A stretch of DNA of 64,000 nt, taken from contig CAZRFU010000016.1 in the NCBI GenBank assembly GCA_964599475.1, forward strand, positions 17,619 to 81,618. The letters are read 5' to 3'. Of this stretch, positions 1 to 15,592 are shown in pieces. The stretch is from an uncultured Thermoanaerobaculia bacterium. GTDB taxonomy: Bacteria; Acidobacteriota; Thermoanaerobaculia; Multivoradales; CAZRFU01. How positions within the stretch are numbered: position 1 is the first letter of the stretch; each line of letters begins with the position of its first letter. The notes below the pieces were generated by a model that was not told the DNA's origin, searched no databases, and was given only the letters and a program-made list of their open reading frames with translations. Position numbers and translations under genes: made by a program.

Positions 1-1498
1 TGCGCGCGAGGTCCTCGAGGAGGGTGTCTCACGGATTGATCGAGCACTCGGCGATCAGCCCGCGGTGGCTGCCGACCTCTACGACGCCCTGGCCGAGATT
101 TACCAGCGCCTTGGCCTGGGAGCTCAGGGCCTCGATCTCGCCCAACGTGCCTTGGCGCTGCGCGAGCGAGAGCTCGCACCCGACCCGGCCAAGATCGGGG
201 AAACGCTGACCCGGATTGCCGCGCTCCAACTCGAGGGCCCGGAGCCGGCGCAGGCCCTTGCAGGTGCACACCGTGCGTGGTCGTTGCTGAGTCGCGAGCT
301 GGGCGAGGACAGTCTCGAGGCAGCACGCGCGGAAAGTGAGCTCGCTGCGGCCCTGATCTGGGCGGACCGCGCCGAGGAGAGCGTGGCCCATCACCAACAC
401 GCCTTCGACGTGCTCAGTGCCCTCCTGGGCCCCGACGATCCTCGCACCGCCGCACAGCTGGTGGCTTTGGCTCGTGCCCTCGAACAAGCGGGCCGGTACG
501 AGGACTCGATCGCTGCATTTCGGCAGGCCCTGCCGGCGCTCGAAGGAGCCCTCGGCGACCTCCACCCGGATGTCTCCTACGCGCGCCGGGATCTCGCCGG
601 GGTGCTCGATCGGGTCGGACGGCCCGCCGAAGCCGAGCCGCTGCTCGAGGCGGCGTTGGCGGCGCAACGCAAGGTGCTCGGGAACGACCACTGGCAAGTC
701 GGCGAAACTCTCTTCTCCTACGGCATTCTGCTCAACACCGCCGGACGTTTGCAGGAGGCGGAAGCTGCCTTCCGCGAGGCGCTGGCGATCGACGGCCCCG
801 CCACCCTCGCCGCCCACTGCCTGCGCTTCCTCGGCACCAACCTGGCCGAGCAGGGGCGCCTCGACGAGGCGGTCGAGAGTCTCGAATCGGCGATAGCCGA
901 GTACCGTCGTGTCGAGGGCCTGGACTCGACCGAGGCCTGGCGTGCGGTCGCCAGCCTCGGCCACGCCCACCTGCGCGGCGGGCGGGTCGAGCTGGCCCTC
1001 GCCACCCTGCGCGAGGCGGTGGCGCGGCTGGAGGAGCTGGCCGGGCCCGAGAGCTACCAGGTACGGATGCCGCTGCGCCAGCTCGGTGAGAGCCTGCGGT
1101 GGGCCGGCGAGCTCGAGCAGGCGGTTGCGGTGTTGCGCCGCACCCGCGCCCTCGAGGTCACCCTCTTCGGCACCGAGGACCATGGCGACATCGCCCTGAC
1201 CGATCTCCAGCTCGCGCGAACGCTGTTCGCCGTCGGGACCAAACCCGCACGCGAGGAGGCAAGCGCCCTGTTCGACGAAGCGATCGAGCTGCTGCGGCGC
1301 CACAAGACTCGCAGTGCCAGTCTCGGCGAGGCCCTGCTGGAGCGCGAGCGGCTCAGGCTCGCGCTGGGTGCCCCGGCGATCCGAGCCAACCTCGCCGAAG
1401 CCGTCGAGCGGCTGATGAGTGCCTACGACGCCGACGACCCCCGCACCCGCGAAGCTCGGGCCCTCCTTTCCGGCTCCGACCCGACCGCCAATCCCTGA
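1..1498 (+). CDS. TPR-repeat protein, 5'-partial (reading frame open to window start). Likely the C-terminal sensor domain of a third Ser/Thr-kinase paralog of the 6974 and 10109 genes
   Basis: ORF 65..1498 translation is all TPR_12-like repeats (AxxLxxLAxxyxxxGRxxEA) and resembles the tails of kinases at 6974 and 10109; frame is open back to nt 2. Confidence 0.6.
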   Translation, partial: AREVLEEGVSRIDRALGDQPAVAADLYDALAEIYQRLGLGAQGLDLAQRALALRERELAPDPAKIGETLTRIAALQLEGPEPAQALAGAHRAWSLLSRELGEDSLEAARAESELAAALIWADRAEESVAHHQHAFDVLSALLGPDDPRTAAQLVALARALEQAGRYEDSIAAFRQALPALEGALGDLHPDVSYARRDLAGVLDRVGRPAEAEPLLEAALAAQRKVLGNDHWQVGETLFSYGILLNTAGRLQEAEAAFREALAIDGPATLAAHCLRFLGTNLAEQGRLDEAVESLESAIAEYRRVEGLDSTEAWRAVASLGHAHLRGGRVELALATLREAVARLEELAGPESYQVRMPLRQLGESLRWAGELEQAVAVLRRTRALEVTLFGTEDHGDIALTDLQLARTLFAVGTKPAREEASALFDEAIELLRRHKTRSASLGEALLERERLRLALGAPAIRANLAEAVERLMSAYDADDPRTREARALLSGSDPTANP

Positions 1499-1627: not shown

Positions 1628-3157
1628 ATGGTCTCCGAACGAGCACCACGTCACCTCGCGCGTCACCTCGCGGGCGCATTGACGATTTTCGCCGCCGGCA
1701 GTGTCTCAGCCCAGGAGATCGGCGTCGACGACTTTCGCATCAGCGCCATGGGAGGCAGCGGAGATAGTGCCTACACGGCGATCTACTCGTCGGTTGCCCA
1801 CAACCCCCTCGCCGAGGAGTACCTGGTGGTGTGGCTCGGCGACACCAACACCGGCGACGGCGACAACCACTACCAGATCTTCGGGCAGCGTATCGACGTC
1901 GCGACCGGTGCCGAGCTCGGAACCGACGACTTCGTGATCGCAAGCCTCGGCGGCCCCTTCGGATCGGCGCCGTTCGCCTGGGTGACGGTGGCTCACGGCT
2001 CCGGCCAGAACGAGTACCTGGTCGTGTGGTCGACGATCACCGGGCTCGGCAACGGCAGCGACTACGAGATCTTCTGTCGTCGCGTCGCCGCCGACGGCAC
2101 ACCCCTCGGCGTCGCGCTCCAGATCAGCCACATGCACAACCCGACCCAGCCGCAGAACGAGAGCCAGTACACCGCCACCGAGCCCGCCGTCGCCTACAAC
2201 CCGCTCGCGGACGAGTTCCTGGTGGTGTGGGCGGGCGACCATGGTGTCGGCGGACTGGTCGACGAGGAAGTCGAGATCTTCGGGCAGCGCATCAGTGCCA
2301 CGACCGGCCTCGAGATCGGCACCGACGACGTGCGCATCAGCGACGTCGGAGGCACCGGCAGTACCTTCTCGGATGCCCGCTCGCCCGACGTCACCTACAA
2401 CTCGATCGACGACGAGTACCTGGTGGTGTGGGCCGCCGACGATCCCGATGCGGGCACGGCCGACAACGAGCTCGAGATCTACGGGCAGCGCCTGACCTCG
2501 CTCGGCGGCGAGATCGGCGTCAACGACTTCCGCGTCACCACCCATGGCCCCGCCAACGAGCCGGGCTACTCCGCGCTCGAGCCCGCGGTCGCCTTCAGCC
2601 CGGATCACTCCGAGTACCTGGTGGTGTTCAGCGCACCCGAAGCCTGGTCGCAGGCGGTCGGACCCGGCTTCGAGATCTACGCCCAGCGTCTCGACGCGAG
2701 CGCAAGCGCACTCGGCGGCGCCTTCAGGCTGAGCGATGTCGGCGGCCTGGCGGAGCTCGCTTTCGACGCCGACACCCCCGATGTCGCCTATGCCCCGGCT
2801 TCGGAGCGCTGGATCGTCGTCTTCCGAGCCGACGACAACGTCGGCGGGCAAGTCGACGGCGAGCGCGAGGTCCACCTGCAGGAGGTCGATGCGGCAACCG
2901 GCGCCGAGGTCGGCGACAACGACGCCCGCGTCAGCGACATGGGCCCCACCGGCAGCACGATCTACCAGACCTCACTGCCCACCGTCGCTTGCGCCGCTGC
3001 GACCGAGTGCCTGGTGATCTGGCGCGGCGACGACAACGTCGGCGGCCTGGTCAACGACGAATTCGAAATCTTCGGCCAACGCTGGGCAACCACACTGCCG
3101 GCCTCGATCTTCGAGGACGGGTTCGAAAGTGGCGACACCTCGGCGTGGAGCCTGTAG
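1628..3157 (+). CDS. secreted repeat protein, seven tandem ~58-aa repeats (motif YNPLxxEYLVVW.GD...EIFGQRI), signal peptide, C-terminal DGFESGDTSAWSL tag
   Basis: ATG at 1628 preceded by AAAGGAG; N-terminus MVSERAPRHLARHLAGALTIFAAGSVSAQE looks like a Sec signal; repeated E[YF]LVVW / EIFGQR motifs in the translation; ends FEDGFESGDTSAWSL*. Confidence 0.7.
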   Translation: MVSERAPRHLARHLAGALTIFAAGSVSAQEIGVDDFRISAMGGSGDSAYTAIYSSVAHNPLAEEYLVVWLGDTNTGDGDNHYQIFGQRIDVATGAELGTDDFVIASLGGPFGSAPFAWVTVAHGSGQNEYLVVWSTITGLGNGSDYEIFCRRVAADGTPLGVALQISHMHNPTQPQNESQYTATEPAVAYNPLADEFLVVWAGDHGVGGLVDEEVEIFGQRISATTGLEIGTDDVRISDVGGTGSTFSDARSPDVTYNSIDDEYLVVWAADDPDAGTADNELEIYGQRLTSLGGEIGVNDFRVTTHGPANEPGYSALEPAVAFSPDHSEYLVVFSAPEAWSQAVGPGFEIYAQRLDASASALGGAFRLSDVGGLAELAFDADTPDVAYAPASERWIVVFRADDNVGGQVDGEREVHLQEVDAATGAEVGDNDARVSDMGPTGSTIYQTSLPTVACAAATECLVIWRGDDNVGGLVNDEFEIFGQRWATTLPASIFEDGFESGDTSAWSL

Positions 3158-3254: not shown

Positions 3255-4789
3255 TCACGGCACGGTGTTCGACCACGCCCAGGTGTTGCCAGTCTCGAAA
3301 CCGTCGGCAAAGAACCACGGGCAGCCGCCCGCGGTGTGCTCGACCGAGCCCATGTCGTTGGTGCCGTTGCCCTGTGGCCGCAACACGCCACGCTGATCCA
3401 TGAAGGTATTGCCGCCCGCGAGAGGGATCCCAGCGTCGATCGCCGGGCTGCTCGGGCTGAGATTGTGGCTGCGGGTGAGCTCCTCGGGGATCCCGACCGG
3501 GCAGGAAAAGCCGAGGGGCAGGATCTGGGCGTCGGTCTCGGGTTTGTTGCCGTTGGTCGCAAGCTCGCCACAGCTGATCCCAGACCACAGGCTCGCGCCG
3601 ATGTCCACTGCGGCGCCGCCTGCGATCGAGCACTGGTCGCCGCTGTCCGTTGCGCTGTTCAGAGCCCAGATCACGTTGCGGGCGTGCAACGTCGAGCCGA
3701 TCGCCCCGGTCGTGACGCCACCGCCAACGGCGGCCTGATTGTTGGCGATCGTGGTCATCCGCAAGGTCAAGGCGCCTTCGTTGTGGATACCACCACCCGA
3801 GCCGGCGCTGGTGTTGCCGGAGACCGTCGTGTTCTCGAGCTGGAGGGTCCCGAGATTGGCGACGGCGCCACCTCTCGCGGCGGGATCGCTCGCGACGTTG
3901 CCCGAGAAGGTGGACTCGCGCTGGAGCGACGATGACCCCGCTGTGATGAAGAAGCCCCCTCCCTCGGCGGCAGCATTGTCGGCGACCGTATCCCGGCTGA
4001 GTGAAACGCCGGAGGCGTTCTGCAGCAACACGGCGCCGCCCTGGCCGGCCGCCACGTTGAGCACGAACGAGCTCAGATCCAGAAAGCCCGAGGCGCTCGT
4101 GGCACGAACCGCACCGCCATCGCCACCGGCGGTGTTGTTGTCGAACGAGGATCCAAACACCGCGAGCTGGGTCGTGTTGGCGACATCGAGCGCGCCGCCA
4201 TGGCCAACTGCGGTGTTGTTGGTAAGGATGGTGCGGCTCAGGTCCACCCGCCCGCCGATGGCGGCGATGGCTCCGCCGTCGCCGTTGGCGTGGTTGCCGG
4301 CAAGAGTGCTCCACAGAGCGTGGACCACGCCACCACTCGCGAGCACGGCGCCGCCACTCCCGGTGGAGGTGTTGTTGGCCAGGATGGCTCGGTCGAGCTC
4401 GAGGTCACCACCGGGCTCCACCACCCCGCTCCACCGCCCGCTGCAACGCCGTCGACGAGGAAGATCTCTCGCATCGTGGCGACCGCCGCAGCGGCGACCA
4501 CGAAGTGCCGCGTCGTGCCGCCACCCGACAGTGTCACCTTGTTGTCCCCATCGAAAACCACGAAGGCCGTGATCGGCTTGGCGGCGGTCAGGGTGATCAC
4601 GATCGGGTCGGGGCCACAGTCGAAGGTGATCGTGCCACCGCCGGCGTGCGCCGTCGCGATCGCGGCATCAAGGTGGGACTCGGTGCATCCTCCAGGCGAG
4701 CCGTCGCCGACGACGGCGTTGGCGCCGAGGACCGGAGGGACGGCGAGCAGCAAGCAGAGGGTGAGGCAAGGGAAGTCGCGAGGTTTCAT
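3255..4789 (-). CDS. Pmp-repeat (GGA[IVL]) right-handed parallel beta-helix secreted protein with CSLREA-like N-terminal motif and C-terminal DGFETGNTWAWS tag; reading frame broken near 4420-4432 (G-run), so possibly a pseudogene or sequencing error
   Basis: ORF 4238..4789 (signal peptide MKPRDFPCLTLCLLLAVPPVLGANA, motif GCTESHLDAAIATAHAGGGTITFDCG) and ORF 3255..4424 (NNTxxGxGGA repeats, tag FADGFETGNTWAWSNTVP*) align collinearly to the paralog at 4786..6309. The two frames join if one G is added to the GGGG run. Confidence 0.6.
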
Positions 4790-6309
4790 GGCGTAGTCGA
4801 GCTCCAGGAGTTGGTGTTGCCGAGATCAAAGTCGTCGGCGAAGAGGGCGAAACAGTCGCCGGCCTGGTACTCGACCGCCCCAACGTCACAGCCAAGGCCC
4901 TGGGGCCGCGGGACGCCACGCTGGTCGACCTGCGGGGCCAGGGCACAGGAGGCCGCGTCGATCGCCGGGCTCGTTGCCTCGATCGCGTGGGTAGGGGTTC
5001 GTTCGGTTGCCAGTCCAGTGCAGGTCCTCGCCAGGGCGGCGATCCCAGGATTGGTGTTGGGTTGGTTGCCGCTGCTCGTGCCGGTACCGCAGGTCGTGTC
5101 GGACCAGATGCTGAAACTCAGCCCGAGCGGCGCGGCGCCGAAGTTGCACTGCGAGTCGACAAGGCCGTTGTTGGATCGGTTTGCAACCAAGAGGCTGTTG
5201 TGGATCTCGAGCAGGCCGGCAGGCAAGTTGTCGATCCCGGCGCCGGGGTCGCGTGTGACGTTGCCGACGATCGTGCTGTTGACCACCATGGCGGTGCCAC
5301 TGTTGCTGAGGCCACCGCCCCCCAACGCCCAGTTGCCGGAAATGGTCGCGTTCTGCAGGGCCAGCGTACCGAGATTTTCGATACCGCCGCCGATCACCGC
5401 GCTGTTGCGCGACACCGTTGTCGATATCACCACGACCTGCGATGGCGTGTTGACTCCGAGTCCACCGGCGAGACCGGCCGAGTTGTTGGCATCGAGCCAG
5501 GAGTCGGTGATCGTGACGTCGCTGCCATCCCACACGTAGAGCCCACCCGCCTCAGCCGCGTCGTTGCCCCGGATCAGCACGCGGGTGAACTGGGTGAAGA
5601 ACGCGCCGCGCAGGGCGACTCCTCCGCCGGCGCCGCCGGCCGTATTCCCCTCGATCCGGCTGTCGATCACACCGACATTCGAAAACCACGCTTCGACGGC
5701 GCCCCCATCGGTTCCGGCGCCGTTGCCGGTCATCGTGCTCGATTGCACCACGAGGCCGCCGGGATAGAGGTTGATGCCACCTCCTCCTCCGACAGCCTCG
5801 TTGTCGCGGACATGGCTGTCGACGAGGGAAACGAAGAGATGGTTGCCGGCGATCGCACCGCCCCAGGAGGCGGAGATGTTGTCCTCGAGGGTCACCCCCT
5901 CGAGATGCAGTTGCACCGCAAGGTCGAGGGACGGGGCGGGAGCCCAGATCGAACCGCCGGGTGAGGCGCTCCCGAGCGTCAGGGTGAGATTGCGCAGCGT
6001 CACCTCGCTGTCGTCGAGAAGGCGAAAGTGCCGCGTGGCAAGGCCTCCGGAAAGGGCGATCAGATTGCCACCATCGATCGTGACCTGGTCGCCGAGGACC
6101 TTTTCGCTGGTGAGCACGATGGCGTGGGGAGCCGGCCCACAGTCGAAGGTGATCAGGCCGCCTCCGGCGTTGGCGGAGGCCACCGCCGCCGTCAAGGCCG
6201 CCTCGGTACAACTTGCAGACGATCCGTCGCCCACCACGGCGTCGGCGCCGTAGGTCGGCGCGACCAAGGCCACGGCGGCGGGAAGTACGAGCTGATGAAC
6301 CAGGCGCAT
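4786..6309 (-). CDS. Pmp-repeat parallel beta-helix secreted protein (paralog of 3255..4789), CSLREA-like N-terminus, C-terminal DDFDLGNTNSWS tag
   Basis: Start taken at internal ATG 6309 (MRLVHQLVLPAAVALVAPTYGADA signal peptide, AGGAGG RBS upstream) rather than ORF start 6369; GGG[AG][IVL] repeats; stop TGA overlaps ATG of the downstream gene (ATGA at 4786-4789). Confidence 0.75.
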   Translation of the reverse strand: MRLVHQLVLPAAVALVAPTYGADAVVGDGSSASCTEAALTAAVASANAGGGLITFDCGPAPHAIVLTSEKVLGDQVTIDGGNLIALSGGLATRHFRLLDDSEVTLRNLTLTLGSASPGGSIWAPAPSLDLAVQLHLEGVTLEDNISASWGGAIAGNHLFVSLVDSHVRDNEAVGGGGGINLYPGGLVVQSSTMTGNGAGTDGGAVEAWFSNVGVIDSRIEGNTAGGAGGGVALRGAFFTQFTRVLIRGNDAAEAGGLYVWDGSDVTITDSWLDANNSAGLAGGLGVNTPSQVVVISTTVSRNSAVIGGGIENLGTLALQNATISGNWALGGGGLSNSGTAMVVNSTIVGNVTRDPGAGIDNLPAGLLEIHNSLLVANRSNNGLVDSQCNFGAAPLGLSFSIWSDTTCGTGTSSGNQPNTNPGIAALARTCTGLATERTPTHAIEATSPAIDAASCALAPQVDQRGVPRPQGLGCDVGAVEYQAGDCFALFADDFDLGNTNSWSSTTP

Positions 6310-6392
6310 TGGGTTTCCTCCTCGAGCTGCTATTGGCTCGAACGGGAAATCGAGGGAGAAAGCGGACATGGCGCCCCTGCTAACATCTCCGC

Positions 6393-6968
6393 GTGTCAGC
6401 TCCCATCCCGGCCGGCGACCTCACCGCCCTGATCGAGGCTTGGGATGGCGGCGCGGGGGTGCCGGTCGACGAGCTGTGGCAGGCTGCCTATGCCGAGCTC
6501 AAAGCGCTTGCACGCTCGCGACTGCGGCGCCAGGGACCCGTGACACTGCTCGACACCACCGCTCTGGTCAACGAGAGCTACCTGCGGCTGGTGGGCGTCG
6601 GCCGCCTCCAGGTCGAGACTCGCGGCAAGTTCTTCGCCTACGCCTCGCGCGTGATGCGGTCGGTAGTCGTCGACCTCGCGCGCGAACGACTCACGACACG
6701 GCGTGGTGGCGGTGCCGAGGCGGTCACCTTCGACACGGACGCCGTCGACCGCCTGCAGTTCCCGGCGCTGGCCGAGCCGCTCGATGTCGATGCGGTGCTC
6801 GCGGAGCTGGAGGTGGTCGACCCGCGACTCGCGAAGGTCGTCGAGATGCGCTATTTCGCGGGCTACACCGAGGTCGAGATCGCGACGATCCTCGGCCTCA
6901 CCGAACGCACGGTACGCCGCGACTGGCACAAGGCGAAGCTGCTGCTGCGCACGATGATCGTTCGCTGA
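6393..6968 (+). CDS. ECF-type RNA polymerase sigma factor, kinase-associated subgroup (TIGR02999/ECF43-like)
   Basis: GTG start; sigma-2 region LVNESYLRL and sigma-4 region YTEVEIATILGLTERTVRRDWHKAKLLL; immediately followed by a Ser/Thr kinase gene. Confidence 0.8.
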   Translation: MSAPIPAGDLTALIEAWDGGAGVPVDELWQAAYAELKALARSRLRRQGPVTLLDTTALVNESYLRLVGVGRLQVETRGKFFAYASRVMRSVVVDLARERLTTRRGGGAEAVTFDTDAVDRLQFPALAEPLDVDAVLAELEVVDPRLAKVVEMRYFAGYTEVEIATILGLTERTVRRDWHKAKLLLRTMIVR

Positions 6969-6973
6969 GGCCC

Positions 6974-9334
6974 ATGAACCGCCTACCATGCTCACCCGGC
7001 CAATGGCCCGAGCTCTCGCGGCTACTCGACGAGGCGCTCGAAAGTCATCAGCAGGATCGAGGAATATGGCTCGAGCGCGTCGGCCGAGAGCGGCCGGACC
7101 TCATCGAGGCCCTGCGAACGGTGCTCGAGGCCGAGGTAGGCGAGCAGGCCGATGCCGCCCAATTCGAGTCCCCGTCCTGGGATCTCCTCGATGACGAGGA
7201 TGCTCTTGGCCAGGGAACCGTCGTCGGGCCCTACACGCTCGAAGCCGAGTTGGGAGTGGGCGGGATGGGGACCGTCTGGAGCGCCCACCGCAGCGACGGC
7301 GCGTACCAACGCCGGGTTGCACTCAAGCTGCCCCACCTCTGCGGGCCGGGGGCGGATCTCCGGGCTCGGTTTCGGCGCGAGCGGGACATCCTCGCCCGGC
7401 TGTCGCATCCCAACATCGCGCAGTTTCTCGACGCCGGCGTTGCTGCCGACGGGCGCCCGTATCTTGCACTCGAGTTGGTCGAGGGGCGGTCGATTCTCGA
7501 GGCTGCTGGGTGCGCTCGGCTCAGCGTCGACGGGCGCTTGCGGTGGTTCCGGGCGGTGCTCGACGCCGTCGCCTACGCCCATGCCAGGCTCGTGGTCCAC
7601 CGCGACATCAAGCCCTCCAACGTCCTGGTCGGCGCCGCCGGCTCCGTCAAGCTGCTCGACTTCGGGATCGCCAAGCTGCTCGAGCCGACCGCCTCCGAGC
7701 GCGGCGGCGCCGCGCAGCTCACCCGCGCGGACGTCAGACCAGCGACTCCCGACTACGCCGCTCCCGAGCAGCTCGACGGCGGTGATGTGACCGTGGCGAC
7801 CGACGTGTGGGCGCTCGGTGCGCTGCTGTTCGAGTTGCTGACCGGTGGCCGACCTTTCTCCCGCGCCGAGCGTCTGAGTAGCCAACGCGACCGCTTCGTA
7901 CCGTTCTCCTCGCGCCGCGTCGACCCGACGCACGCTCGGGCGTGCGGCTTGTCGACGAAATCCCTCGCCAGGCGACTCGAAGGCGATCTCGACGCGATCC
8001 TCGCCAAAGCTCTCGCTTTCGAGCCGACCGATCGGTACGCCTCGGTCGAGGCATTCGCCGGCGACCTCGACCGCCACCTTGCTCTCCAGCCGATCGTCGC
8101 GCGGCGGCCGAGCGCATTGGTGCGGGCGCGCCTGTTCGCGCGCCGTCACCGAGTCGGACTGGTGTCGTTCGGCCTCCTCCTCGCGTCGGTGACCGCAGGC
8201 ATGCTCGGGGTACTGCTGCAGGCCCGGGCGACCTCGGCGGCCGCCCGGCGCGCCGAAGCGACCAAGGACTTCCTCGTCGAGGTCTTCAAAGGCAGCGACC
8301 CGCGGGTTGCGCGCACCAAGCCCCGCGGCGAGATCACCGCTCGAGAGCTGCTCGACATCGCGGCTCACGATCTCGAAGTCGGGTTCGAGGATGATCCCGA
8401 GACCCGGATCGAGCTGTTGGGGCTGACCGCCACGATCTACACCTACCTCGACGAGATCGGTGCCGCACGGAGGCTGGCCGAGATGGGACGGCTCGAGGGG
8501 CAGCGCCTGCTCGAGGCCGACGATCCTCGCCTGCTCGACCCTTGGCTTCTCGAGATCTGGCTTGCCCTCGAGGCCGGGGACCTCGAGTCCGCGCGGACAC
8601 GGCTCACCGAGGTCGACCGACACCTTACGGTCTACGGGCTCGATCACACGGTCCACCGCGCCGGTTACCACCTGGCCGCCAGCGACATCGCTGCGGCGCA
8701 GGGCGATCGAGACGGCCGGAAGCAAGAGCTCGAGCAGGCCCGGGCTCTTTATGCTGCGGTGGCTCCACGCGACTCAGGGCATGCCGCAGCGCTGTCGAAT
8801 CTCGGCCTGTTGCGTCTGGGGGGTGGTGAACCCACGGAGGCTCTGACCCTGCTCGACCGCGCCCTGACGGTGGCCCAGACTGCCACCAGCGATGTGGGTA
8901 CCGACCTCGCCCGGATTCACGCTCGTCGAGGCCGGGTGTTGCTGGAGCTCGCGCGCTTCGAGGACGCCCGGGAAGCGCTCGACACGGCTCTGGCGCTGTA
9001 CGCCGCGACGGTCGGCACAGACCATGTGACCACCTGGGCCCCGCGCGCCGCCCGTGCCCGAGCGGCAGCCTACCTCGGCCAAGCCATCGACGCCGACCGC
9101 GACCTCGGTTCTCTCGAAAGCCTCCCGGGCTGGCAGGAACCGCGTTTCTCGCGCTACCGTCAGGAGGCCAACTTGCACCGCGGCCTGGCTTTGGCCAGAC
9201 TCGGTCGGCAGCCACAGGCTGCGGCGATTCTCGCCGAGAGCGTCGCAAGCCTGGGCGACGATCCCGAGCTCGAAGCCGAGATCCGCTGGGCTCGGCTCGA
9301 GATCGCAAGCACCCGGTCCGACGCAGGTGGATGA
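6974..9334 (+). CDS. Ser/Thr protein kinase (PknB-like) with one TM helix and extracytoplasmic TPR sensor domain
   Basis: ATG 6974 is 5 nt after the sigma stop; GxGxxG (ELGVGGMGTVW), VALK, HRDIKPSNVLV, DFG, APE motifs; TM LVSFGLLLASVTAGMLGVLL; TPR repeats to the C-terminus. The supplied ORF 6368..9334 is an artefactual extension through the sigma gene. Confidence 0.85.
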   Translation: MNRLPCSPGQWPELSRLLDEALESHQQDRGIWLERVGRERPDLIEALRTVLEAEVGEQADAAQFESPSWDLLDDEDALGQGTVVGPYTLEAELGVGGMGTVWSAHRSDGAYQRRVALKLPHLCGPGADLRARFRRERDILARLSHPNIAQFLDAGVAADGRPYLALELVEGRSILEAAGCARLSVDGRLRWFRAVLDAVAYAHARLVVHRDIKPSNVLVGAAGSVKLLDFGIAKLLEPTASERGGAAQLTRADVRPATPDYAAPEQLDGGDVTVATDVWALGALLFELLTGGRPFSRAERLSSQRDRFVPFSSRRVDPTHARACGLSTKSLARRLEGDLDAILAKALAFEPTDRYASVEAFAGDLDRHLALQPIVARRPSALVRARLFARRHRVGLVSFGLLLASVTAGMLGVLLQARATSAAARRAEATKDFLVEVFKGSDPRVARTKPRGEITARELLDIAAHDLEVGFEDDPETRIELLGLTATIYTYLDEIGAARRLAEMGRLEGQRLLEADDPRLLDPWLLEIWLALEAGDLESARTRLTEVDRHLTVYGLDHTVHRAGYHLAASDIAAAQGDRDGRKQELEQARALYAAVAPRDSGHAAALSNLGLLRLGGGEPTEALTLLDRALTVAQTATSDVGTDLARIHARRGRVLLELARFEDAREALDTALALYAATVGTDHVTTWAPRAARARAAAYLGQAIDADRDLGSLESLPGWQEPRFSRYRQEANLHRGLALARLGRQPQAAAILAESVASLGDDPELEAEIRWARLEIASTRSDAGG

Positions 9335-9451
9335 CCGGAGCCGTCCCTCGACGTTCCCCGGTCCGGCGCCCCGCTGACGGCAGTCACCGAGACGCGTCTG
9401 GGAATGCCGCGCCCTGATACCGACCGCGCGGAGTCCTCTTCGAGCCGGGTG

Positions 9452-10057
9452 TCAGCCTGGGCGTGGTTCGAATCCGGTCAGCTCGAGATGCAACATCGCG
9501 CGAGCGGCCCGCCAGTCGCGCTTGACCGTCCGCAGCGAGACCGCTGTCGCATCGGCGATCTCCCCAAAGGTCAGCCCGCCGAAGAAGTGCCACTCGACCG
9601 TTTGGGCCAAGCGCGGGGCTGCGAGCTCCAGACGAGACAGGGCAGCATCCAGCGCCAAGAGATCTTCGATCGGGGCCGACGTGCCCGGCGCTGCGACGGC
9701 GATGGCGTCGAGGTCGATCTCAGGCTGACCACCACCACGTTTGCCTGCCTGGCGCCCGCGCGCGCGGTCGACCACCACGTGGCGCATCGCGCGCGAAGCC
9801 ACTGCGAACAGGTGTTGACGATCTTCGAATGGTAGCGCCCCTCGGCGCGACAGCCGCAGGAACACTTCGTGCACGAGCGAGGTGGCGGACGGCCCCGCAA
9901 CTTGGGCCCGCAGGTGGCGACCCGCCAAGGCCCGGAGGTCGGCGTAGATCAGATCGAACACCTTGCCTGCAGCATCGCGGTCGCCGCCGCGAGCGGCTGC
10001 CAGGAGCGCGGTCACGGCGCCCTGGTCGCCTTCGGGGGAATCGCCGGCCGCACCCAT
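9452..10057 (-). CDS. ECF-type sigma factor (second copy, same kinase-associated subgroup)
   Basis: C-terminal 201 aa of ORF 9452..11290(-): VHEVFLRL, LTFGEIADATAVSLRTVKRDWRAARAML; ATG at 10055-10057. The remainder of that ORF is antisense to the kinase gene. Confidence 0.75.
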   Translation of the reverse strand: MGAAGDSPEGDQGAVTALLAAARGGDRDAAGKVFDLIYADLRALAGRHLRAQVAGPSATSLVHEVFLRLSRRGALPFEDRQHLFAVASRAMRHVVVDRARGRQAGKRGGGQPEIDLDAIAVAAPGTSAPIEDLLALDAALSRLELAAPRLAQTVEWHFFGGLTFGEIADATAVSLRTVKRDWRAARAMLHLELTGFEPRPG

Positions 10058-10108
10058 TCCGAAGATTCTAGCGCCGCGTCCGACATCTCCTGTAGCGTTG
10101 CCGCACCG

Positions 10109-13072
10109 ATGGCCACCTCCCGGCAGGAAGAGCGAGCGCGCTGGTTCGTCGAGCTGTGCGACCTCGAGCTGCGGGAGCGTGACCGGGCTCTCGAGGAGAT
10201 CGCCGCGAGCGATCCCCAGCTGGCGGCCGAGGTCGAAAGGCTGCTCCGCCTCGATCGGCAATCGAACGGGCCGATCGAAGCCCTGCGCGAGGAACTTGGA
10301 CCGGCCCTGCACTCGGCGTTTTCCGAACTGGAGGTGGCAGACCTTGCGCCGCCGGAACGGCTCGGCCCGTGGCGCCTGGGCGAAAGACTCGGTGCGGGCG
10401 GCATGGGCGAGGTCTGGGCCGCCGAACGCGCCGATGCCGGCTTTGCCCAGCGCGCTGCCATCAAGCTGGTCCGCTCGAACATGGCGAGCGAGGAGGTGGT
10501 GCGCCGCTTCGCCATCGAACGCCGGGCTCTCGCACGGCTCGAACATCCCGGCATCGCCCGGCTGCTCGACGGCGGTGTCGCTCCCGATGGTCGCCCGTGG
10601 TTCGCCATGGAGCGGGTCGACGGCATCGCGATCACGACCTTCGCCGACACCAACGCACTCGACCTCGGGTCGCGATTGCGACTCTTCCTCGCCGTCATCG
10701 AGTCCGTCGCCTTTGCTCACCAGGCGCTGGTGGTCCATCGCGACCTCAAGCCCTCGAACATCCTGGTGACCGCGGCCGGCGCGCCCAAAGTCCTGGACTT
10801 CGGCCTGGCCAAGCTGCTCGACCCGGCGGAAGGCAACCAGGACCAGCCGGAGCTCACGCACACCAACCTGCTGGCGCTGACCCCGGCTTACGCCGCTCCA
10901 GAGCAATTCCTCGGCGAGCCGACCACCACCGCAACCGACGTCTACGCCCTGGGCGCGGTTCTGTTCGAGCTCCTCACCGGGCAATTGCCGCACCAGCGGC
11001 GAAGCCCTTCGCTCGCCGTGCTGCTCGAAGGGCTCGAGCGCGAGACCCTCGAGCGCCCTTCTCAGCGCCTCAGGCGTTCGGCTGCCAGCGAACGCCCGGA
11101 TCGAGCCGCCAGGCTGCTCGAGGGAGACATCGACACCATCGTGCTGCAGGCTCTCGCCCGCGAACCGGCCCGCCGCTACCCAACCGTGGCGGCGCTCGGC
11201 GCGGACATCCGCGCCCACCTCGAAGGGCGGCCGATCGCGGCACGGCCGGCCTCGGCCTTCTACCTCTTCTCCAAGTTCCTCGGGCGGCACCGAGCGGCGG
11301 CGATCGCTGCGCTGACCGTGGTGTCGGCCCTGAGCGTCAGCCTGATCGTCTCGTTGCAGCAGACTGCGGTCGCTCGCGCCGCCCTCGCCACGGCACAGAG
11401 CGAGGCCCGGCGCGCCGAGAGGGTCAAGGACTTCCTAGTGTCCGTGTTCGAACAGGCCGACCCAACCCACACCCAAGGAGCCGACGTGCCGGCGCGACAG
11501 ATCCTCGCCGAGGGCGCGGCCCAGCTGAGGACCAACCTCGCCGACGAGCCCGAGGTCCGCGCCGAGCTCTACGACACCGTCGCGCAGATCCAGACCAGCC
11601 TGGGATTGCTCGAAGAGGGGCTGGCCAACGCCGAAGCCGGCGCCGCAGAGCGCAAGCGGCAGTTCGGTGACAGCTCGCGCGAGTACGCCCGCAGCCGGGT
11701 GACGGTGGGCCGGGCCAAGCTGCAGCAGGCCCAGTTCGCTGGCGCGCTGGAGGACTTCGACCATGCCCTATCGGTGTTCGAAGCCAGGGTGGATACCCGC
11801 TCGCTCGACTTCGCGAAGGCACTCTCCGGTCGGGCCGAGGCCCGTCTGATGCTTGGCGACCCGGAGCAGGCGCGCACCGATCAGCTCGCCGCCAATGCGA
11901 TCTATGCCGCGGCCCTCGGGCCTGAGGATCGGGAAACCCTCGGCCAGCTCTCGAATCTCGCCGTGATCGAAACCCGGTCCGGAACCGTCCTCGAGGCCGC
12001 GCGGATCTTCCGCCAGGTGCTGGCCGGCCTCGAACGCGTCGAGCCCCCGGACTCGGCACGTGTGCTCGATGTCGTCCTCAATCTCGCCACCGCCCTCGAC
12101 ACCGCCGGCCAGAGCACAGAGGCCTTGGCGCTGTTCGAACGCGTCGTCGCCGGTCGCCGGAGGATCTACGGGGACCAACACCCCCTGCTTGCCGAAGCGC
12201 TGGTGATCGCCGGGCTCAGGATGTCGCGAGCCGGCCGTGGCGACGACGCACTTCGAGCGCTCGACGAGGCCCGCGCGATCTACGCACCGCTCGATCACCC
12301 GGAGCTCGGTACCGTCGACAACTTCAGCGGCCTGACCTACGCCGACCTGGGGCGGTTCGCCGAAGCCGAGGCGGCGTTCGCGGCAGCGTCGGCTCGGTTC
12401 TCACGGGACCTCGGCCCCGCGCACGTGATGACGGTTTCCGCCAACGCCAATCGGGCCAACGTGGTGAGTGAGCTCGGTCGCGAGGACGAGGCAGTCGAGC
12501 TGTTCGCCGAGGCGGTCGCCCAGCTGCGTGTGCTCCAGCAGCTCGACAACCCGAGGCTGTTGCGCATGCGACTGAACTGGGGAGCGGCGCTGCGCCGCGC
12601 CGGACGCTTTGCCGAAGCGCGGTCGGTGCTGGAAGCCGCGATGGCGGCCGCGCGCGAGCAGTTCGGAGGCGACCATCTGCGCATTGCCGAGGGCTCGGTC
12701 GAGCTCGCCCGCCTCGAGCTGGCTGCGAGAACGTCCACCGCTCCCGAGGTCGCTGCCTCACTGCTCGCCGAGGCGGAGCGGATCGCCGAGAACAACCCGC
12801 CCAACGCCGCCTTGGCCCGCAATCTGGCGGCAGCGAGGGCGGAACTGCGGGAGGCAAACGGTTCCTCGGCACCCATCACGGCCCCGACCACCCTGCCATC
12901 GACCCCGCTCGAACCCGTCCGAGAAGATCAGGCCATTGTCGAGGCTGGGGGACGGGCTCTACCATCTCCTGGCGTGCGGCGCGATCGAGGTGGAGATCAG
13001 CTCCGGCTCGGTGTCCGCGGTAGACGTCTTCGCCGACCGGCTGCGATTCGAGCTGCTGGATCTGCTGCGTGA
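10109..13072 (+). CDS. Ser/Thr protein kinase with TM helix and long extracytoplasmic TPR domain. The 3' end is uncertain: a G5 run at about 12945 separates it from a tag-encoding frame
   Basis: ATG 10109 (MATSRQEERARWFVELCDLELRER...); ELGAGGMGEVW, AIK, HRDLKPSNILV, DFG, APE; TM AAAIAALTVVSALSVSLIVSL; TPR repeats; divergent from sigma gene 9452..10057. Confidence 0.8.
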   Translation: MATSRQEERARWFVELCDLELRERDRALEEIAASDPQLAAEVERLLRLDRQSNGPIEALREELGPALHSAFSELEVADLAPPERLGPWRLGERLGAGGMGEVWAAERADAGFAQRAAIKLVRSNMASEEVVRRFAIERRALARLEHPGIARLLDGGVAPDGRPWFAMERVDGIAITTFADTNALDLGSRLRLFLAVIESVAFAHQALVVHRDLKPSNILVTAAGAPKVLDFGLAKLLDPAEGNQDQPELTHTNLLALTPAYAAPEQFLGEPTTTATDVYALGAVLFELLTGQLPHQRRSPSLAVLLEGLERETLERPSQRLRRSAASERPDRAARLLEGDIDTIVLQALAREPARRYPTVAALGADIRAHLEGRPIAARPASAFYLFSKFLGRHRAAAIAALTVVSALSVSLIVSLQQTAVARAALATAQSEARRAERVKDFLVSVFEQADPTHTQGADVPARQILAEGAAQLRTNLADEPEVRAELYDTVAQIQTSLGLLEEGLANAEAGAAERKRQFGDSSREYARSRVTVGRAKLQQAQFAGALEDFDHALSVFEARVDTRSLDFAKALSGRAEARLMLGDPEQARTDQLAANAIYAAALGPEDRETLGQLSNLAVIETRSGTVLEAARIFRQVLAGLERVEPPDSARVLDVVLNLATALDTAGQSTEALALFERVVAGRRRIYGDQHPLLAEALVIAGLRMSRAGRGDDALRALDEARAIYAPLDHPELGTVDNFSGLTYADLGRFAEAEAAFAAASARFSRDLGPAHVMTVSANANRANVVSELGREDEAVELFAEAVAQLRVLQQLDNPRLLRMRLNWGAALRRAGRFAEARSVLEAAMAAAREQFGGDHLRIAEGSVELARLELAARTSTAPEVAASLLAEAERIAENNPPNAALARNLAAARAELREANGSSAPITAPTTLPSTPLEPVREDQAIVEAGGRALPSPGVRRDRGGDQLRLGVRGRRLRRPAAIRAAGSAA

Positions 13073-13121
13073 CGGCTTCGAAAGTGGCGACACCAGCGCA
13101 TGGTCGCTCGCGGTGCCGTAG
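12930..13121 (+). other. orphan coding segment in the kinase +1 frame ending ...DVFADRLRFELLDLLRDGFESGDTSAWSLAVP* (fourth copy of the C-terminal tag)
   Basis: 18-nt identity (ttcgaaagtggcgacacc) with the tag-coding end of the 1628..3157 gene; reads cleanly only downstream of the G5 run. Confidence 0.45.
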
Positions 13122-13256
13122 CCGCGGCCATCCGGCCTGCGGGCTATCATCTGCTCGCGGTGACCGAGATGCCGAGCGCGGACTCGCCATTCGCAACGGT
13201 CGCGGCGCAGGCCGAGAGCAGAGAAGCCGACGAAGGCCCGGCGGGTTCAGCCGAGT

Positions 13257-15131: not shown

Positions 15132-15592
15132 TGGGGCCTCGGCGTCTCAGGCAGGTCATCGCCCTGATCGTGGCGCTGGCTGCCGCGGTGATCGGCCTCG
15201 AGGGCCGCGGATACCCCTGGTCACTGGCCGCGATCTTGGGTGCTGCCTGCGGAGCGTTCGTCTGGGTCTTGCTCGAGCGGATCGGCGAGATCGCGGCGAT
15301 GTTCGGCGATCACCACCCGCCACGGGAAGACGAGGACCGCCGCCAACAGCGCGAGATGGATCCACCCGCCGAAGACCATTCCGGCGCCGAGGGATACCAA
15401 CCAGGTCGAGAACAAGCCGAAGGTGAGGGCCAGCCGCAAGAGCTCGGGGCGCATGATGCACAGTCTAACCCCGAGGAGCCACTTCGCCGTGCGACGCTGG
15501 ATACTGACACCCCCGAGGTGCTGTTCGACCACCCGCTGATGCGAGCCGAACGGCGTCGGCTGCCGGCACCGGACGAGGAGCAGCACCGCTGA
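15131..15592 (+). CDS. small membrane protein (2 TM) with acidic low-complexity tail
   Basis: ATG overlaps the FAH stop (TGATG) and its own stop overlaps the crcB ATG (TGATG), forming a translationally coupled chain. An alternative minus-strand ORF 15221..15586 was judged less likely. Confidence 0.45.
   Translation: MGPRRLRQVIALIVALAAAVIGLEGRGYPWSLAAILGAACGAFVWVLLERIGEIAAMFGDHHPPREDEDRRQQREMDPPAEDHSGAEGYQPGREQAEGEGQPQELGAHDAQSNPEEPLRRATLDTDTPEVLFDHPLMRAERRRLPAPDEEQHR

Follow-up and report, generated by a model that had tools for sequence, protein, structure and literature searches.

The window analysed here is a stretch of 64,000 nucleotides (nt) of contig CAZRFU010000016.1 (positions 17,619 to 81,618, forward strand) from an uncultured Thermoanaerobaculia bacterium. 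It contains two adjacent modules, each consisting of a gene for an extracytoplasmic function (ECF) sigma factor and a gene for a Hanks-type Ser/Thr kinase, which lie beside genes for secreted proteins that share a C-terminal tag (Table 1). The G+C content of the window is 62-71%, and the closest named relatives of its proteins are found in metagenome-assembled genomes of Thermoanaerobaculia (Acidobacteriota). The genes named in a preliminary description of this DNA were all recovered at the coordinates given there. Sigma 1 and kinase 1 (pair 1) are separated by 5 nt, the start codons of sigma 2 and kinase 2 (pair 2) by 51 nt, and sigma 1 is separated from tagC by 83 nt. We regard it as reasonably probable that both modules are ECF43-type sigma/kinase pairs and that a phospho-switched sigma 1 drives tagC-tagB from a conserved promoter.

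Table 1. Features of the sigma/kinase region, in window coordinates.
Feature	Position	Strand	Remarks
Third-kinase C-terminal TPR tail	2-1498	+	Enters at left edge; TPR_12 E 7.6e-42
tagA, secreted protein	1628-3157	+	No family match; ends ...FEDGFESGDTSAWSL (stop); 130 nt 3' of third kinase
tagB, Pmp-like beta-helix	3255-4789	-	Chlam_PMP, Beta_helix and NF041518 matches; second gene of tagC-tagB
tagC, 507-aa beta-helix	4786-6309	-	Signal peptide, choice-of-anchor Q domain, tag ...FADDFDLGNTNSWSSTTP (stop)
Predicted sigma 1 (ECF43-type) promoter of tagC-tagB	6339-6370	-	-35 CATGTCCGCTTT, spacer, -10 CCGTTCG
Sigma 1, 191 aa, kinase-associated ECF	6393-6968	+	PF07638, TIGR02999
Kinase 1, 786 aa, Hanks-type Ser/Thr	6974-9334	+	Pkinase and TPR matches
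Sigma 2, 201 aa, kinase-associated ECF	9452-10057	-	PF07638, TIGR02999
Kinase 2, 987 aa, Hanks-type	10109-13072	+	Pkinase and TPR matches; divergent from sigma 2
Orphan 3' remnant of tag-protein gene	12928-13121	+	...DVFADRLRFELLDLLRDGFESGDTSAWSLAVP (stop); frame differs from kinase 2

Both sigma factors are two-domain ECF proteins (sigma-2 and sigma-4) of the PF07638/TIGR02999 type. The matches to PF07638 (Sigma70_ECF) have E values of 2.5e-39 for sigma 1 and 1.4e-41 for sigma 2, and the TIGR02999 (Sig-70_X6) scores are 163.7 and 166.3 bits, respectively, against a curated cut-off of 126.15. The two proteins are 41% identical, and the sigma-4 motif reads ERTVRRDW in sigma 1 and LRTVKRDW in sigma 2. 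The acidic DAED patch of region 2.2 is missing in both; the region reads D54-T55-T56-A57-LVNE in sigma 1 and S57-A58-T59-S60-LVHE in sigma 2. T56 is invariant in an alignment (A1) of 28 sequences comprising sigma 1, sigma 2 and 26 homologues, and the region 2.2 motif is xTTA or xTTS in most of the 80 genomic loci that were surveyed for sigma 1-like genes.

Members of the ECF43 group are without the acidic DAED/DxxD patch through which region 2.2 contacts the beta-prime clamp and carry a Thr instead (consensus QTTA), and this region 2.2 Thr is phosphorylated by the co-encoded Hanks kinase (PMC8999054, PMC13147305). EcfP (Iyer et al. 2020, cited from PMC8999054) has the motif STTA and is intrinsically inactive until PknT, the kinase encoded beside it, phosphorylates the second Thr. 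EcfK has the motif QATE and requires a second phospho-site in the sigma-2/sigma-4 linker (PMC13147305). This linker reads RRGGGAEAVT112FDT115 in sigma 1, and a block (V/I/L)TL(D/N)T is strongly conserved in the motif census of the 80 loci. VT112FDT115 is a second candidate phospho-site, in which T112/T115 would correspond to T104/T106 of EcfK. In sigma 2 the linker is EIDLDA, in which an Asp occupies the position equivalent to T112 of sigma 1; this would fit the Ser/Thr-or-acidic pattern reported for T106 of EcfK.

The preliminary description had placed a conserved phosphorylatable Thr in the sigma-2/sigma-3 linker. The conserved Thr is present (T56 in sigma 1 and T59 in sigma 2), but it lies in region 2.2, as these are ECFs without a sigma-3 domain. 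No anti-sigma gene adjoins either sigma gene, the neighbours being tagC, kinase 1 and kinase 2, and the gaps of only 83, 5 and 51 nt leave no space for one. With the DAED patch replaced, a Thr at its third position and a kinase gene adjacent, both sigmas are, as judged from their sequences, of the ECF43-like, kinase-associated type without an anti-sigma, which agrees with what had been proposed for them.

Both kinases match Pkinase (E 2.5e-39 for kinase 1 and 1.3e-32 for kinase 2) and several TPR families, and they are 33% identical to each other. The catalytic motifs are complete in kinase 1 (GVGGMGTV94, ALK118L, HRD209, DFG229, APE263) and in kinase 2 (GAGGMGEV95, AIK119L, HRD210, DFG230, APE263). 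The kinase domain starts at residue 87-90 in both proteins and is preceded by a conserved segment of ~86 amino acids (aa), for which no Pfam match is obtained in either kinase at E up to 1. Each kinase contains one hydrophobic 19-mer helix at residues about 394-415, with an Arg-rich stretch before it, and all TPR matches are C-terminal of the helix; the order in kinase 1 is N-terminal extension, kinase domain (87-356), helix (about 394-412) and TPR repeats. From the Arg-rich residues before the single helix, a cytoplasmic location is predicted for the kinase domain and an external one for the TPR region. The TPR sensors attributed earlier to these kinases thus correspond to a PknS-like receptor layout of kinase domain, one helix and TPR repeats, with a predicted topology. 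Kinase 2 is present as an NCBI protein record (P0001). Contigs from four different samples (L002-L005) all stop at window position 7675, inside the kinase domain of kinase 1, and this shared end probably reflects a break in assembly due to the many kinase paralogues that the genome contains.

Pair 1 is embedded in a conserved gene arrangement. Homologues of sigma 1 show unusually high conservation, with 66-72% identity in other Thermoanaerobaculia and 48-60% identity in many Beta- and Gammaproteobacteria, including Lysobacterales and Xanthomonadales-like genomes; such genomes have been reported to be rich in ECF43 (PMC13147305). The contexts of four sigma 1 orthologues were taken first (L011-L014), and two more (L016 and L017) were added by a scan of GTDB species genomes. 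In all four of the former, the kinase gene lies directly 3' of the sigma gene with a 4-nt overlap, and a divergent gene begins about 100-130 nt 5' of the sigma gene and encodes a protein with a signal peptide. A divergent tagC homologue is found in every Acidobacteriota sigma 1 orthologue locus (L011/L015, L012, L013, L014/L018, L016 and L017), which means that six other Acidobacteriota genomes keep the sigma 1 orthologue and kinase opposite a tagC homologue. These divergent partners have 25-43% identity to tagC, and those that are in frame carry C-terminal tags of the same kind, ...DGFEAATAYRWSAAIP, ...DGFERGTALAWSDSTP and ...DDFEGGDLSRWSARSP. Among the 59 coding-like open reading frames (ORFs) counted over L011-L014, the divergent partner is the sole tagged ORF in L011, L012 and L014; in L013 the tagC homologue is frameshifted, and the called ORF shows no tag.

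On this comparative evidence, pair 1 and a tagged beta-helix gene make up a conserved module of three genes. The kinase is 3' of the sigma gene and co-directional with it in ~70 of the 80 sigma 1-like loci; the proteobacterial loci keep the pair but have a different divergent gene, which usually encodes a small signal-peptide protein and in two cases a PEP-CTERM protein. The synteny of sigma, kinase and tag that had been expected for both pairs therefore stands for pair 1, in the six other genomes, but not for pair 2, since in 80 metagenome loci of sigma 2-like genes none of the 314 coding-like ORFs is tagged.

The intergenic region between sigma 1 and tagC contains a motif that reads GAACGG-N16/17-CGGACA on the plus strand. 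It is present in this exact form in the window, in a 98.7%-identical metagenome contig (L001) and in L011-L014, and nowhere else in those loci. Variants of the motif are located 5' of the sigma gene in 25 of the 80 loci, across phyla, compared with a rough composition-based chance expectation of ~0.6. On the minus strand the consensus is (G)ATGTCCGGTTT-N13/14-(G/C)CGT(C/T)(T/C)G, and forms a predicted ECF-type promoter. Its -35-like block is long and its -10 (CGTC/CGTT) short, as is usual for ECF promoters.

A weight matrix was built from the sites upstream of the sigma gene in the sigma 1-like loci. At 19 bits or more, 90 sites are obtained in 1.07 Mb of sigma 1-like loci versus 4 in shuffled copies, and one borderline site is obtained in 0.42 Mb of sigma 2-like loci. 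The site at 6339-6370 (minus strand) scores 25.1 bits, compared with maxima of 13.3-18.9 bits in 10 shuffled windows, and is the only above-null site in the 64 kb. Its -10 ends 30 nt 5' of the tagC ATG, which is preceded by a GGAGGA ribosome-binding site. An ECF-type -35/-10 promoter had been anticipated upstream of 6309(-), 1628(+) and 13902(+); it is found, and conserved, at the first of these, but the matrix scan gives no site above null before tagA (1628), before 13902(+) or around pair 2. A CrcB gene is preceded by a match with one mismatch (15548-15575, plus strand), which does not exceed chance and was discarded as a promoter.

The direction of the promoter is settled by proteobacterial sites that were outside the training of the matrix. 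Of these, 32 are located between the sigma end and the kinase and 16 just after the kinase, and all 48 are on the strand directed at the downstream gene, with none on the opposite strand. Additionally, almost all loci that have a site upstream of the sigma gene also have a divergent ORF, whose start lies 5-120 nt past the -10. In the loci L019-L094 the consensus recurs at about 8540-8620 and about 11400-11700 (locus coordinates). Its position before and after the kinase gene points to positive feedback on the kinase and to a downstream target gene in the proteobacterial relatives; the Acidobacteriota loci carry the divergent site only.

The proteins encoded by tagC and tagB consist of a beta-helix/Pmp region, an NF041518 domain and, immediately after this domain, a sorting-type signal at the C-terminus. 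The NF041518 match has an E value of 1.4e-17 in tagC (residues 458-502 of a 527-aa ORF) and 1.1e-11 in tagB, and the 4-nt overlap of the two genes indicates that they form an operon. The tag has the motif (F/L)x(D)GFExGxxxxWSxxxP, ending at the stop codon, and is encoded at 3122-3151, 3270-3299, 4801-4830 and 13077-13106, so that all four copies in the window cluster within 13 kb of the modules; other copies are encoded at L010:12992-13021 and L001:4693-4722. It follows the choice-of-anchor Q domain in tagB and tagC and also terminates unrelated proteins (PD40/Tricorn-like, DUF5122). The tag has no match among the NCBIfam and Pfam models, and a literature search for the string DGFESG returned no paper; it looks like an undescribed sorting-type signal.

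These features can be joined in a mechanism for pair 1. Kinase 1, with its extracytoplasmic TPR repeats, single helix and cytoplasmic kinase domain, would detect an envelope or external cue and would phosphorylate sigma 1 at Thr56 in region 2.2, and possibly at T112/T115 of the sigma-2/sigma-4 linker. The added negative charge would stand in for the missing acidic DAED patch and allow sigma 1 to bind core RNA polymerase. The sigma 1 holoenzyme would then initiate at ATGTCCGCTTT-N-CCGTTCG (6339-6370, minus strand), and this promoter would drive the divergent tagC-tagB, which encode two secreted Pmp-like beta-helix proteins with the C-terminal DGFExGxxxxWS tag. Pair 2 probably uses the same switch, via T59 of sigma 2, and its targets are not demonstrably tagged proteins. 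Within the kinase-activated ECF class both modules are ordinary, and their mechanism is proposed by homology.

The EcfK/PknS system of Xanthomonas citri (ECF43; PMC13147305) is similar in several respects. An ECF without an anti-sigma is likewise encoded beside a transmembrane Hanks kinase; PknS, like the kinases here, has an N-terminal extension (~83 aa, compared with ~86 aa here) and periplasmic TPR repeats; and EcfK has a Thr third in a degenerate DAED motif (QATE; DTTA and SATS here) and a Ser, Thr or acidic residue in the sigma-2/sigma-4 linker. The output of EcfK/PknS is, as predicted here, a cell-surface or secretion function, but it is a type VI secretion cluster, whereas here it would be a tagged beta-helix operon, and the phylum differs, which is Acidobacteriota in the present case. 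EcfP/PknT of Vibrio parahaemolyticus (ECF43; Iyer et al. 2020, cited from PMC8999054) also has the DAED patch missing (STTA) and a region 2.2 Thr as the phospho-target; in contrast to sigma 1, which keeps Asp54, no acidic residue is left in its motif, and its regulon confers polymyxin resistance. The TIGR02999/PF07638 expansions of Planctomycetota, Verrucomicrobiota and Acidobacteriota belong to the same family by the curated cut-offs and similarly provide several paralogous sigma/kinase pairs per genome, but they are defined by sequence only, with no target promoter or regulon in the literature surveyed. Besides ECF43, the kinase-associated ECF groups include ECF59/61/62/217/283 (PMC7826278).

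A different function of the motif was considered, in which GAACGG-N16/17-CGGACA on the plus strand is an autoregulatory promoter of the sigma 1-kinase 1 operon and the tagged genes are regulated independently. In the closest orthologues the motif does lie 22-50 nt 5' of the sigma start, autoregulation is common among ECF sigmas (PMC7826278), and GAAC resembles a generic ECF -35. However, the plus-strand reading is atypical in that it makes the long invariant block the -10 and leaves only 3 nt conserved in the -35. The 48 independent sites all have the TGTCCGG-to-CGT polarity, for which the opposite reading would mean transcription antisense into the sigma gene, and almost every upstream site is followed by a divergent ORF; autoregulation of this form is thus unlikely. 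The preliminary description had gone further in the other direction and proposed that the pairs sense secretion or envelope status and control the tagged exoproteins. In this broad form, with both (or all three) pairs jointly monitoring such status and controlling the whole tagged set, the proposal draws on the clustering of the four tag copies near the modules and on tagged genes that are convergent to kinase 2 in L175-L177 and L010. It is difficult to reconcile with a single above-null promoter site in the window and none before tagA or 13902(+), with sigma 2-like loci that have neither the motif nor tagged genes, with kinase 2 orthologue flanks that are not conserved, and with the variation of the tagA/third-kinase block and of the gene after kinase 2 among strains, and we consider it improbable. 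Synteny and promoter support only the narrower claim that pair 1 would control tagC-tagB, and they do not extend it to pair 2. A more specific arrangement can also be envisaged, in which the tagged beta-helix protein, the ECF43-type sigma and the TPR kinase form a dedicated feedback circuit for an undescribed tag-recognising sorting pathway, with the kinase TPR binding the tag or unprocessed cargo, and cargo expression matched to sorting capacity; this is quite speculative and, in our estimate, decidedly improbable.

Control of the sigmas themselves may also differ from the proposed phospho-switch, and several observations weigh against it. Asp54 and Glu61 are still present in region 2.2 of sigma 1, which may therefore bind polymerase partly without phosphorylation; sigma 2 has an Asp at the linker position where EcfK requires a phospho-Thr; and the T51A mutant of EcfK is still functional (PMC13147305). 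In the proteobacterial loci the kinase gene itself is behind a sigma-type promoter, so that transcriptional feedback exists. These points would suit sigmas that are constitutively active or mainly controlled by transcription, with kinases that act chiefly on other substrates and a pairing that is genomic rather than mechanistic. Against such a view, the region 2.2 Thr varies little or not at all among phyla, kinase adjacency is near-universal, and direct phosphorylation has been demonstrated for two family members, which leaves it doubtful. Conventional control by an unrecognised anti-sigma, for example by the ~86-aa kinase extension acting as a tethered anti-sigma domain, would account for the conservation of this segment before the kinase domain in both kinases, as in PknS. 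At E up to 1 the extension matches no Pfam family and hence no anti-sigma domain, a separate anti-sigma ORF is missing, and the phospho-activated class is defined by loss of the DAED patch, all of which make this explanation very unlikely. Further reservations about the phospho-switched sigma 1 and its promoter concern classification and target. The ECF43 label of the two sigmas is provisional, being based on the family match and motifs. The minimal pattern TGTCCG-N17/18-CGTY has 1 match in the window compared with 1.55 expected, which is not significant; it is the conserved position in different genomes, together with the extended matrix, that makes the promoter significant. For sigma 2, no alternative motif emerged from 7-mer counts, and target genes were not found. 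Finally, tagB is one gene that is split into two ORFs by a 1-nt deletion near 4425 (window 4405-4450 reads CCACCACCCCG, versus CCACCACCACCG in L001, L002 and L003, where tagB is intact and encodes 511 aa); either the assembly is in error here or tagB is a genuine pseudogene in this strain.

Kinase-activated ECF sigmas are abundant in Acidobacteriota, Planctomycetota and many Proteobacteria. In the literature surveyed, those tested are EcfP, EcfK and one ECF43 of Hyphomonas neptunium, with outputs described for EcfP and EcfK. The present locus supplies a testable output in the form of a defined promoter consensus and a conserved target operon, and it links an uncharacterised C-terminal tag family to a regulator. 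The consensus is found in different phyla at three positions, namely in front of the divergent gene and on either side of the kinase gene, and on that account could serve to predict the regulons of this sigma subfamily genome-wide. Both this consensus and the conserved unit of three genes are useful details that appear modestly new, and the accepted view of how kinase-activated ECF systems work is unchanged by these results.

The divergent layout of pair 2 is kept in orthologues at 58-74% identity (L007, L009 and L098-L102), and the sigma 2 orthologues keep GPSATSLVHEAFLRI. The kinase adjoins the sigma gene in 54 of the 59 sigma 2-like loci with a visible kinase (37 co-directional and 17 divergent), and it is mostly downstream in distant sigma 2-like genes; beyond the pair itself, the flanking genes are not conserved. 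The only enriched word examined that is not GC-rich, GATCGG, was rejected as a sigma 2 motif, as it reflects coding conservation within the divergent kinase gene. In L010 (5964-12772), two tandem kinase 2 paralogues (P0019 and P0009) flank a sigma 2 orthologue with a frameshift in its C-terminal half, and a TrmO-like gene is inserted between sigma and kinase.

The third TPR tail that had been noticed at the left edge is confirmed as an ORF with 31% identity to residues 462-889 of kinase 2. No additional copy of a sigma/kinase module is found when the modules are compared with the whole 64 kb by tblastn, and the sigma partner of the third kinase, if any, lies outside the window. To the left of 3215, the contig L001 (1-6820) carries entirely different genes, which encode an ankyrin protein, a tagged DUF5122 protein and a Laminin_G_3 protein in which a tag-like motif occurs internally. 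The module is thus not always accompanied by the tagA/third-kinase block.

The 3' end of kinase 2 is also variable. Orthologues of kinase 2 (58-63% identity, 920-940 aa) stop just after ...NLAAARAEL.., and the final ~70 codons of the ORF (from about 12860) are not common to them and represent a lineage-specific tail. The third-position G+C (GC3) shifts to the tag frame near 12900-12950, and the tag frame is the coding frame from about 12915. This switch, together with the one indel in tagB relative to other assemblies, was the basis for suspecting that kinase 2 is a tagged protein with an assembly frameshift. That possibility was rejected: the orthologues stop ~70 codons earlier and have no tail, the tag is likewise out of frame, with another offset, in three other assemblies of the same species (L175-L177), and no match was obtained when the repaired tail served as a protein query. 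The same three assemblies are without 12928-13070 and have a 1.9-kb insert between 13138 and 13139 (L175:3279-5237). The insert gene, on the minus strand and convergent with the kinase, encodes a tagged beta-helix protein of 522 aa, which has a signal peptide and ends ...DGFESGSHGAWSSATGS (stop). Two facing tag-coding stretches are thus ~20 nt apart in L175-L177, which suggests recombination at tag-coding repeats, and the tag-coding stretch after kinase 2 is a remnant at a strain-variable junction (12927-13139).

No canonical sigma-70 promoters or intrinsic terminators were found within 6200-10200. The hexamers TAACAT (6381-6386, plus strand) and TAGAAT (10065-10070, minus strand) are -10-like and lie 6-7 nt 5' of the starts of sigma 1 and sigma 2, respectively, and no Shine-Dalgarno sequence is present at these starts. 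Similar hexamers (TAAGCT, TACAAT) are present at the orthologues in L007, L009 and L011-L014, at a spacing of about 9-12 nt from the start in the sigma 2 orthologues, and CAGAAT is located ~10 nt 5' of the starts of kinase 2 orthologues. The -10-like hexamers near the starts and the missing Shine-Dalgarno sequences suggest leaderless, housekeeping-type transcription of the signalling genes.

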